Source: Dictyostelium discoideum
Taxonomy: Eukaryota
Length of the DNA stretch: 64,000 nucleotides
NCBI GenBank assembly: GCA_000004695.1
Contig: CM000151.3
Coordinates: 1,248,001 to 1,312,000, forward strand
Reading direction: 5' to 3'
This document shows, in pieces, positions 3,605 through 7,395 of the stretch. The position numbers and the translations under genes were made by a program. Position 1 is the stretch's first letter. Every line of letters begins with the position of its first letter. The notes under the pieces are model-generated. The model ran no database searches. It was given only the letters and a program-made list of their open reading frames with translations, and was not told the origin of the DNA.

Positions 3605-6600
3605 TTATTTTTTAATTGATTTTGGTTCCATTGGAGAAGAGGAAGAACGAGTTCTAGTTAATAATTGTTCTTTAACTTTTGAAATTGGTTTTGTAATTGA
3701 ATCAGTAGTAGCAGGTTCTGAAATATTATTATCACTATCATTATTATTATTATTATTATTATTATTTAAAAGGTTTGAATTTGATGGTTGATATCTTAAT
3801 TTTGGTTTTTCAGAAGTTACAGTGGTATTATTATTATTGTTGTTATTATTAATATTATTACTATCAATTGATGGAATAATTTCTTCATTAATTATTGGTT
3901 TTGGTAATTGTTGTGGTGGTATAGTTCTTATTGAATCCCATTGTTCTCTATTTGCGTTGTATTCATCACGAATTTTTAGTAATTCTTCATAGAATTCAAG
4001 AGTAGTTGGACGAAGTGTAGAATCTTTAACGAGTGTTCTTGCGATTAAATTTTTTAAAGATTCTGGAGCATTCTCTGGTGTAGTTGGTCTAACATCCTTT
4101 TTGGCGGAAGAGATTAAGATTTGATAATCAAATTTCAAGTGTGGATATTCAGCATAGGGTAATAGATGAGTACCTTTGATACAACGATAAGTCATCTCCC
4201 ATAGAATGATACCCATTGAATAGACATCACTCTTTGTTGTATACTTTTTACCGAAATAAACCTCTGGTGCGACATAGGCATAGGTGCCTCTAAGTTTACC
4301 AAGGGTCTCTAAATTGGAACCAGTATCGAAACGACTAAGACCAAAATCACAAATTTTGACGGTCCAATTTTCGGTGACCAATAAATTTAAACTCTTTAAA
4401 TCTCTATGTAAAACTTGTGGGGTCCAATTGTGAAGGGAATCCAATGAATTGATTGCTTGTGTACCCAGATTGAAAAAGTTATCCCAAGTGAATTGAGTTG
4501 TATCATCCTTTAGAATATGATAAAGACTACCACGTGAACAATACTCCATAACGATACAAAGCTTATCCTTTATACCTGCACCATGAAAATATACAACACC
4601 TGGTGCTCTCAATGCACTAACAATTTGAAATTCCTTTTTAAACTCTGCAATATCCTTTTTATCGGTGAATGATTTCAATACCTTGATTGCTACTTCTTGT
4701 CCATTAAATGTACCTTTATATACTTTACCAGATGCACCAGTACCTAATAATACATTATAAGTTAATGTCTTTTCGTCAATAACCCAACTATCTGAATCTA
4801 AATTTATATGTTTTAATACTGATAAATCTGATACATCTAAATTTGGTCCCTCTGGTGTTACAGTTGTTGTTTTAGTTGGTGTTATAGTTGTTGTTTGTTG
4901 TTGTTGTTGTGGTGGTGTAGTTGATTCAGTAGTTGTTTTATCTTCTGTTGTTGCAGTTGTTGTTAGTGTTGTTGTTGTTGCTGCTATTGCTGTTGTAGTT
5001 GTTGTAGTTGTATTTGAACCAATTGCTACAGGTGAAGGAGCAGCAGGTGCTGAAGAAGAAGCAGGTATAGGATTTGGTGATAGTATATTATTTTTTTTAT
5101 CTTCATTATTATCATTATTTACATTGTGTATATTTTTTAAACTATTTAAATTACCTGTACTCTTACTTTCTACATTATTATTATTTAAAGTATTGTTTTG
5201 ATTTTGTGCTTTAAATCCGCCACTATTCCTATTTCCTGAACCTAAACTATCATTATTTATATTACATTGCTCTTGGCTATTATTATTATTATTGTTATTA
5301 TTATTATTATTATTATTATCATTTTCAACATGAATTAAACTATTTGATCTTAATGAAGAATTTGAACTTAATGATAAAGGATCTTTTATTTTTCTAACTG
5401 CTCTTAAAAGTTTAGTTCTTTGACCAGATACAGAAATATTTAAAAGATCCAATGTTCCCTCATTGATATCGGTTATAACATCCATATAGATTTCATTCTT
5501 TATAAATTTTGGTATCAATGTTTCCAATTGTAATTCATTTAACCAATCACTAATCTCTATTACTTTTTCAACTTTACTTATAATTTGAGGATTACCTAAT
5601 TCTTTTGCCAACTCTAATGGTGTTCTACTTGGTTTACCACCTTCTATCATAACATTTGCACCATTTTGTAAGAAAAATCTAACAAATTCAACTTTACCAA
5701 CTTTTATTGCATAATGTAATGGTGTATCTCTAGTTTTTGTTTGACTAAATATCAAAAAAAAAAAAAAAAATAAATAAATAAATAAAAAATAAAAAATTAA
5801 ATTAATATAAAATTATTTTTTTCTTTTTTTAAACTATAATAATAATAATAATAATAATAATAATAATAATAATAATAATAATAATAATAATAATAATAAT
5901 AATAATAATAATAATAATAATAATAATAATAATAATAATAATAATAATAATAATAATAATAATAATAATAATAATAATAATAAAATACATACTGATTAAT
6001 AATTGCACCTTTTTGTAAAAGTTGTTCAACAATTGTAGTTTTTTGAACTACAGTAGCTAAACAAGCTTTATGTAATGCAGTTTCACCTAAATTATTTTCA
6101 TCATTTATACCACAACCACGTTCAATTAATTTATTGATAATATCTTCACAATTTAAAGAGACATTTTTCTGTACAAATAAGTGTAATGGTGTATTACCAT
6201 GTTGATCTCTAATTGAAACTCTTGCATCGGATCCCTTTAATAACATTGTAATCAATGGTATATTATTTGATGCTGCTGCAATATGAATTGCTGGTGTACC
6301 TTCGTTATCACAAATTGTATAATCTAATTTTGCTTTATTCATCATCAATTCAATTGCTTGTGTATCATTATCTTTAATTGCTTTAATAAATGGACTTTTC
6401 TATAAAAATAAAAATAAAAATAAAAATATAAATAAAATTATAATAAAAATATAATATATAGTTAGAAATTAAACCATTATTATTATTAATTATTAAATTT
6501 TAAAAACAAATAAAAAAAAAAAAACAACATACTTCTGGTGGTGGTAATGTTTTATCTTTATCGAATCTAATTTTTAATTTAATTTCACCAGATACTTTAT

Positions 6601-7395
6601 CGTTAGGTTTCATTGGTTGAAGAGTATACCATTTAGTTGTATCTACTATATATTCTTGAATTTGTGAAACTGGTATATTTGTTAACCCCATTCTATCATC
6701 ACTACTAAATCTATCCCAATCATAAACTTCCACTGTAATCGCTAGTAAATTTACATCAATATCGCTATTTTTATATTTATATTTATAAATTATTTAATTA
6801 GTATGGTTTATAGGAATATATATTTATATATATATATCTATACTAATAATACTAATAGTTATCTTACAATTCGAAACAATTATCAGATTCCCATTTTGGA
6901 AATAATGTATGTTTAATTGCTTTGGTTTTTTTCTTTTTATCACCAACTATTACAACACCATATGGGTCACTCATTCCTATTTTTTTTATTTAAAAAAAAA
7001 AAAAAAAAAAAAAAAAATATAAATTAGCTTTAATATCTAGAGAGAGAATTAAAAAAAAAAAATTATAAAAATATTCTTACCATTGCTATCCATAGGAACT
7101 AGATTTCTACCTTCCAATACTGTATAATAAAATTTTATAATTTTATTTTTTTAAAAACAATACATTTGTTAGAATTTTAAAGGAGGAGGGGGTAATGTAT
7201 ACATTAGTGAGTGTGGTGGGGGTATTGAGATTGTTAATAATATAAAAAAAAAAAAAAATAAAAAAAATAAAAAAATATATACACAAATAATAATTAGATA
7301 AAAAACAAATAAAAGGGATATTAAAAAAAAATTAAAAAAAATAAAATTAATTAATTCTTACCCTCTATACGAACTGACCCAATTTTTCGTGCCAT
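3605..7395 (-). CDS. C2 domain, ankyrin repeats and TKL-type protein kinase, six coding exons: 7395..7362, 7119..7081, 6976..6868, 6764..6533, 6399..5993, 5744..3605.
   Basis: Exon joins were rebuilt by hand. MARKIGSVRIE|VLEGRNLVPMDSNG|MSDPYGVVIVGDKKKKTKAIKHTLFPKWESDNCFE|FDIDVNLLAITVEVYDWDRFSSDDRMG..IKLKIRF forms a complete C2 domain. Exon 5 carries ankyrin repeats, and the junction GAIIN|HQTKTRDTPLHYA fits the ankyrin consensus exactly. The last exon has the kinase motifs GTGASGKVYKG, AIK, HRDLKSLNLLV, DFGLS and APE. Donors are GTAAGA, GTAAGA, GTAAGA, GTATGT and GTATGT, all with AG acceptors. The last intron (5992..5745) contains an (ATT)~48 repeat. Exon phases are all consistent. Confidence 0.75.
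5836..5983. repeat. (AAT)n/(ATT)n microsatellite of about 48 units inside an intron of the kinase gene
   Basis: Perfect trinucleotide array. The ORF track reads it as polyY and polyI, but the flanking GTATGT donor and TTTAG acceptor place it in an intron. Confidence 0.9.

Follow-up and report, generated by a model that had tools for sequence, protein, structure and literature searches.

A six-exon gene on the minus strand of Dictyostelium discoideum DNA very probably encodes DDB0229848, a protein kinase of the ARK family within the TKL group. The gene lies at positions 3605-7395 of a 64,000-nt stretch (assembly GCA_000004695.1, contig CM000151.3, positions 1,248,001 to 1,312,000), hereafter referred to as the window. 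Its 986-amino acid (aa) product is arranged as a C2 domain, ankyrin repeats (ANK), a SAM domain, a linker, the kinase domain and a C-terminal tail with a conserved RxRSxSSP motif. Two micro-exons, 34 and 39 nt long, encode the N-terminus and escape tracks based on open reading frames (ORFs). Gene, micro-exons and domain composition alike are already known, having been curated and published as part of the Dictyostelium kinome in 2006, and they are no discovery of ours.

Gene model and identity

A preliminary description of this DNA, drawn from the sequence alone, had proposed six exons and a start codon at 7395. Splicing the six intervals in silico (Table 1) joined them into one clean frame of 2961 nt, in which the only stop codon is the terminal one. 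The joined exons encode 986 aa, and the size of about 1080 aa given in the preliminary description was therefore some 10% too high. The assembled protein proved identical to DDB0229848, which begins MARKIGSVRIEVLEGRNLVPMDSNGMSDPYG, over the 408 residues compared, all five exon junctions included. It follows that both the gene model and the architecture had already been curated. Fragments of the DDB0229848 kinase domain reproduced in Figure S1 of the kinome paper (PMC1420674) match as well, machine-reading errors in the text aside.

In the kinome survey (Goldberg et al. 2006, PLoS Genet 2:e38, PMC1420674), DDB0229848 is listed in Table S2 under the TKL group and the ARK family, predicted active ("a"), with VAIK, HRDLKSLN and DFG motifs. 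The kinome tree shows it as the sister of ARCK-1, beside SpkA/SAPKalpha and DDB0229849/50, with DDB0229847 also in the cluster; according to a figure legend, the domains shown on Dictyostelium kinases include C2, Ank and SAM (PMC1420674). Both marks of the ARK family were found for the gene analysed here, namely the placement in the kinome tree (as DDB0229848) and the presence of ankyrin repeats N-terminal to the kinase domain.

All five introns start with GTAAG or GTATG and end with AG. Their GC content ranges between 2.4% and 16.5%, against 28-44% in the exons. Published figures for Dictyostelium introns are less than 15% GC and a length of 60-250 nt (Goldberg et al. 2006, PMC1420674). The introns of the kinase gene fall within these ranges save for intron 1, which at 16.5% GC is slightly above. 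As the preliminary description had pointed out, little of this structure is visible in a list of ORFs. Only three ORFs of at least 40 aa are in the gene's own frame: one of 716 aa for the kinase exon, one of 183 aa for part of the ankyrin repeats and one of 77 aa for a fragment of C2. Exon 3 is overlain by an ORF of 40 aa, but in another frame, and exons 1 to 3 go unseen in their true frame. The possibility that the gene is a pseudogene was rejected on the basis of its intact frame, its conserved motifs and its well conserved orthologues.

The micro-exons and the start of translation

The C2 domain provides a measure of what the two micro-exons contribute. When the N-terminus assembled with them was analysed in isolation, the Pfam C2 profile matched residues 6-109 over its entire length (positions 1-104 of 104) with a score of 76.9 bits, in line with the proposal of the preliminary description that this domain is put together from four exons. 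Beginning instead from the ATG at 6974 confines the match to profile positions 22-104 and lowers the score to 54.7 bits; the ORF fragment alone scores 22.5 bits. Thus, the micro-exons raise the C2 match by 22 bits. The peptide that they specify is also conserved. As many as 17 of the 24 residues encoded by exons 1 and 2 are identical in the orthologue of Polysphondylium violaceum, with the N-termini aligning from Met1, and five dictyostelid orthologues share the N-terminal peptide M-x-K-K-[IV]-G..[IV]E-VLEGRNL.

The genomic loci of two orthologues, from P. violaceum and Tieghemostelium lacteum, were fetched and their exons mapped. Exon lengths are 34, 145, 229, 407 and 1969 nt in P. violaceum and 49, 145, 301, 401, 191 and 1733 nt in T. 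lacteum, where an extra intron is found inside the SAM region. Introns 1, 3, 4 and 5 of the D. discoideum gene occupy identical positions, in identical phases, in both species: between E and V (phase 1), before the F of F-x-I-D (phase 2), between E and K (phase 0), and between N and H or N and A (phase 2). Neither orthologue has intron 2, the counterparts of exons 2 and 3 being united in one exon of 145 nt (L001 3213-3357 in P. violaceum; L002 3128-3272 in T. lacteum). An ancestral exon of about 148 nt would thus have been split by an additional intron in the D. discoideum lineage, leaving the 39-nt exon; intron 2 was accordingly either gained in this lineage or lost elsewhere. A Logan contig for T. 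lacteum (L003, run ERR3252994) carries an intron-less reading frame of 939 aa that equals the genomic exons base for base. This contig corresponds to the spliced T. lacteum gene and so lends transcript-level support to the orthologous junctions. Altogether, the gain in the C2 match, the conserved peptide, the conserved intron positions and the T. lacteum transcript argue that both micro-exons are real and not the product of chance.

It is highly improbable, in our judgement, that the micro-exons are false and that translation begins at Met26 (ATG at 6974) or at Met158 (ATG at 6348), leaving the C2 domain truncated or absent. These were the two starts that the preliminary description had itself named as alternatives to its model. 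ATG codons are indeed present at both positions, and the automatic model of the Synstelium polycarpum orthologue (P0006, EukProt EP01133) begins at the ankyrin exon, without C2. However, a simpler explanation of P0006 is that its annotation lost the same small 5' exons. Starting at 6974 would, besides the cost in the Pfam match, deprive the C2 domain of its strand 1 and of Asp22, the first of its putative Ca2+-binding aspartates. Neither start finds support in the five dictyostelid orthologues, which begin with the equivalent N-terminal peptide at the counterpart of Met1, nor in the first intron, whose position and phase are conserved (the first exon of P. violaceum also being 34 nt long). Furthermore, the T. 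lacteum transcript contig includes the spliced N-terminus, and the curated published protein begins MARKIGSVRIE. Hardly any weight can be given to the idea that the protein is longer, with another coding exon upstream of 7395 or a different first exon there. Such a protein would fit the estimate of about 1080 aa, its sole support, but that figure is an arithmetic error (the exon lengths total 986 codons). The ATG at 7395 is preceded in frame by TAA codons at -6 and -12 nt, a poly(A/T) tract devoid of coding potential fills the 150 nt before it, and the orthologues and the curated protein begin at the same Met.

Domains and motifs of the protein

A Pfam search with the 986-aa protein recovered the C2, ankyrin and kinase domains that the preliminary description had announced, and revealed in addition a SAM domain that it had missed (Table 1). 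The ankyrin exon and the kinase exon both gave the expected matches, and the TKL assignment agrees with the classification of DDB0229848. The protein has about five ankyrin repeats, and some 190 residues rich in Asn, Thr and Ser link the SAM domain to the kinase domain. No C1 domain and no Ras-binding domain were matched in the protein by Pfam.

Table 1. Coordinates of the kinase gene, its exons, introns and repeat, and of the domains of its product. Positions are those of the window; aa numbers refer to the 986-aa protein.
Feature	Position	Strand	Residues (aa)	Remarks
Exon 1	7362..7395	-		34 nt; ATG, MARKIGSVRIE and first base of Val12
Intron 1	7120..7361	-		242 nt; GTAAG..AG; phase 1; position conserved in two orthologues
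Exon 2	7081..7119	-		39 nt; VLEGRNLVPMDSN; C2 strand 1 and putative first Ca2+-binding Asp (D22)
Intron 2	6977..7080	-		104 nt; phase 1; read-through meets a stop
Exon 3	6868..6976	-		109 nt; GMSDPYGVVIVGDKKKKTKAIKHTLFPKWESDNCFE(F)
Intron 3	6765..6867	-		103 nt; phase 2
Exon 4	6533..6764	-		232 nt; second half of C2, including putative Ca2+-binding loop 3 (YDWDRFSSDD)
Intron 4	6400..6532	-		133 nt; phase 0
Exon 5	5993..6399	-		407 nt; most ankyrin repeats
Intron 5	5745..5992	-		248 nt; phase 2; 2.4% GC; largest intron
Exon 6	3605..5744	-		2140 nt including TAA stop; last ankyrin repeats, SAM, Asn/Thr/Ser-rich linker, kinase, C-terminal tail
(ATT)48 microsatellite	5838-5981	-		Perfect run in intron 5; Tandem Repeats Finder (TRF): 51 copies of a 3-nt unit, 5836-5987
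C2			6-109	72.4 bits, full profile (Pfam, whole protein; PF00168 cut-off 22)
Ankyrin repeats (Ank_2, four stretches)			144-320	126 bits
SAM domain	5384..5563	-	335-394	SAM_1 (PF00536) 31.4 bits, cut-off 23; SAM_2 (PF07647) 21.8 bits, cut-off 20.5
Protein kinase domain	3983..4756	-	604-861	PK_Tyr_Ser-Thr 162 bits
C-terminal motif RTRSSSSPMEP	3623..3655	-	971-981	

The kinase domain contains GTGASGKV (residues 608-615), VAIK (K628), HRDLKSLN (D722), DFG (D740) and APE (766-768). With this full set of catalytic motifs it is predicted to be catalytically competent. Its nearest solved structures are those of Arabidopsis CTR1 (1e-36), B-Raf (~1e-32) and TAK1 (~3e-31), which points to a MAP3K-like kinase of the TKL group.

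For the C2 domain, the best solved relatives are the C2 domains of ferlin, synaptotagmin and PKC, with PKC alpha, beta and gamma at ~1e-15. In the HMMER alignment with synaptotagmin-1 C2A (2r83_A), the segments pmDsngmsDpy and yDwDrfssdD face alDmggtsDpy and yDfDrfskhD, respectively. Residues D22, D28, D76, D78 and D84 are thereby paired with all five Ca2+-coordinating aspartates of synaptotagmin-1 C2A (D172, D178, D230, D232 and D238). The five aspartates are kept in the dictyostelid orthologues. At the other end of the protein, the tail motif R-x-R-S-x-S-S-P-[IVM]-[EDN]-P is present in all seven dictyostelid orthologues. Ser976, within this motif, conforms to both the basophilic/AGC-kinase consensus RxRxxS and the mode-1 14-3-3 motif RSxSxP.

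Distribution of the architecture

Full-length relatives with the C2-ANK-SAM-kinase arrangement were found in P. violaceum, Cavenderia fasciculata, Heterostelium album, T. lacteum and Acytostelium subglobosum, at 53-64% identity; the matches of this homology search included no D. discoideum or D. purpureum protein. C2, ankyrin and kinase domains are also combined in relatives from the Amoeba proteus and Rhizamoeba saxonica transcriptomes and from several environmental contigs of no assigned origin. No animal, plant or fungal C2-ankyrin-kinase protein was among the 120 best homology matches. These data suggest that the C2-ANK-kinase proteins are an old and conserved family within Amoebozoa (Dictyostelia and Tubulinea), rare outside this group, and that the architecture is probably at least as old as the ancestor shared by Dictyostelia and Tubulinea. 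The preliminary description had called the domain combination unusual. This is correct in so far as it is rare outside Amoebozoa; however, the combination is conserved across Dictyostelia and in Tubulinea, and it was catalogued as early as 2006. The ARK family was labelled "Dictyostelium-specific" at that time (PMC1420674), a label that now looks too narrow.

Genomic setting

The G+C content of the 64-kb window is 23.6%, and its sequence is marked by poly-Asn coding tracts, long A/T homopolymers and short AT-rich introns, a composition typical of D. discoideum. Upstream of the kinase gene, A/T-rich intergenic DNA contains an assembly gap of exactly 100 N (8624-8723). Further on lie, in divergent orientation, the end of a Mob1/phocein-like ORF (8916-9134, plus strand) and an ORF for ribosomal protein S29 of the S14 family (10880-11063, plus strand). 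At the orthologous locus of T. lacteum, the divergent upstream neighbour (L002 295-2009, minus strand) matches the same two Pfam families, Mob1/phocein-like and S29, which indicates that local synteny is conserved; this gene call itself is apparently a fusion of two genes. On the other side, a convergent neighbour (1473-3311, plus strand) is represented by the C-terminal exon of a putative SNF2-type helicase with a RING finger, judged by eye to be Rad5/HLTF-like. This exon has very long poly-Asn tracts and ends 293 nt from the stop codon of the kinase gene.

The (ATT)48 microsatellite was found where the preliminary description had placed it, in the largest intron, and is the longest among the AAT/ATT runs in the window. 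Five further perfect runs, of 25-32 units, are located at 2067-2147, 21176-21254, 40866-40942, 45641-45738 and 62638-62718, and such trinucleotide repeats are common in the D. discoideum genome. A functional role for (ATT)48 was considered and rejected, as there is no evidence for one, the repeat is intronic and five more such runs occur in the window. The ankyrin ORF (5797-6348, minus strand) runs past the donor site of exon 5 into the microsatellite and thereby acquires a poly-Tyr tail of about 50 residues, an artefact that inflates its apparent length.

Comparison with other kinases

One close comparison is with SpkA/SAPKalpha (DDB0185206), a member of the same ARK family whose ankyrin-SAM region is colinear with that of DDB0229848 (32% identity, E = 3e-44). 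The kinase domain that comes next in SpkA is closely related as well, its motifs being VAIK, HRDLKSLN and DFGLSRF. Unlike DDB0229848, SpkA has neither a C2 domain nor the long Asn/Thr linker. DDB0229849 likewise shares the ANK-SAM-kinase core but lacks C2. PMC9564287 cites Sun, Ma and Firtel (2003) for SpkA as a stress-activated MAP3K-like kinase of D. discoideum. ARCK-1, on the sister branch of the kinome tree, resembles DDB0229848 in combining ankyrin repeats with an ARK-type kinase; in contrast, it carries C1 and RGS domains instead of C2 and SAM and is much larger, its kinase domain starting from residue 1112.

Similarities with more distant kinases are partial. SAM-containing MAP3Ks such as Ste11 and ZAK/MAP3K20 also have a SAM domain beside a MAP3K-like kinase domain, a likeness suggestive of activation driven by oligomerisation, while the MAP3Ks of the Raf/CTR1 type are similar to DDB0229848 at the level of the kinase domain only. 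Raf kinases carry a C-terminal 14-3-3 site, which the RSxSxP motif of DDB0229848 recalls. None of these MAP3Ks (Ste11, ZAK, Raf and CTR1 types) is known to carry C2 and ankyrin modules, and DDB0229848 is devoid of a Ras-binding domain. The features that define the RAF family, a Ras-binding domain with C1 and RAF orthology, were not found in DDB0229848, and Dictyostelium has no RAF orthologues according to the kinome paper (PMC1420674). Conventional PKC resembles DDB0229848 in having a C2 domain of the synaptotagmin/PKC type, with the full set of Ca2+-binding aspartates, together with a Ser/Thr kinase. However, PKC is an AGC kinase with C1 domains and the AGC C-terminal tail; DDB0229848 has a TKL kinase and none of these, and lacks the pairing of an AGC kinase with C1 domains by which conventional PKC is recognized. 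The analogy is thus functional only. PKC itself is absent from Dictyostelium (kinome paper, PMC1420674).

Possible mode of action

Since the five Ca2+-coordinating aspartates are retained, we infer that the C2 domain would dock on lipids in a Ca2+-dependent manner. In the scheme that we regard as most likely, a rise in cytosolic Ca2+ would cause the C2 domain to dock the kinase on membranes containing acidic phospholipids, where the SAM domain would oligomerise the recruited molecules. The ankyrin repeats would bind partners or else hold the kinase in check. Clustering would then promote trans-autophosphorylation of the Raf/CTR1/TAK1-like (MAP3K-like) kinase domain and, by analogy with SpkA, the clustered kinases would signal to the cytoskeleton or to stress responses. 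At the C-terminus, Ser976 may add an input from basophilic/AGC kinases and 14-3-3 proteins.

The main alternative, which we consider rather unlikely, leaves the gene model intact and denies that C2 is a Ca2+ switch: the domain would be a constitutive binder of lipid or protein, or an autoinhibitor, and control would be exerted mainly through the ankyrin repeats, the SAM domain and phosphorylation of RxRSxSSP. Many C2 domains bind their partners in a Ca2+-independent manner, and the C-terminal motif is, as seen above, conserved throughout the dictyostelid orthologues. Moreover, the ANK-SAM-kinase core shared with the C2-less SpkA and DDB0229849 suggests that this core can work without C2. These considerations must be set against the presence of all five of the synaptotagmin-1 C2A Ca2+-coordinating aspartates and their maintenance in dictyostelid orthologues, which is as purifying selection on Ca2+ binding would give.

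Some points weigh against our identification of the gene as that of DDB0229848 and against Ca2+-driven membrane docking of its product. A C2 domain may keep its aspartates intact and yet serve chiefly to bind proteins. Motifs are the source of every reading given here on Ca2+ dependence, lipid binding, oligomerisation, substrates and 14-3-3 binding, and a literature search found no functional study of the DDB0229848 gene. GFP-tagged SpkA, the C2-less paralogue, is not recruited to Ca2+-dependent wound sites (PMC9564287), a result that says nothing either way about the C2-bearing DDB0229848. With regard to the gene itself, the identity with DDB0229848 was established over residues 1-408, the interior of exon 6 being covered by the kinase-domain fragments and by colinearity with the orthologues. 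The junctions of the D. discoideum model are supported by sequence, orthologues and the curated protein, and the transcript evidence is from T. lacteum. Finally, an exact look-up of the 986-aa protein in a collection of 15 billion proteins returned no entry.

Significance

As a discovery the present finding has little weight, the gene having been known since 2006. What the analysis does show is that careful reading of a sequence can recover exons of 34 and 39 nt that are invisible to ORF-based tracks. The point has some practical bearing: in at least one automatic annotation, that of the Synstelium polycarpum orthologue, the C2 domain seems to have been dropped through missed small 5' exons.

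With regard to the biology of the family, the kinome authors raised the idea of PKC-like recruitment by second messengers for C1 domains (PMC1420674). One could speculate, although we hold it to be unlikely, that DDB0229848 with its C2 domain and its sister ARCK-1 with C1 jointly provide what conventional PKC integrates in animals, namely the inputs from Ca2+/phospholipid and from diacylglycerol, PKC-less amoebozoans having rebuilt second-messenger-recruited kinases on a TKL/MAP3K-like chassis. If this were true, DDB0229848 would be the Ca2+-recruited arm, acting for example when membranes are wounded, during chemotactic Ca2+ transients or under osmotic stress. In conclusion, a kinase that appears to be Amoebozoa-wide and whose C2 domain is apparently Ca2+-competent would, given that the organism has no PKC, be a reasonable target for studies of Ca2+ signalling in Dictyostelium.

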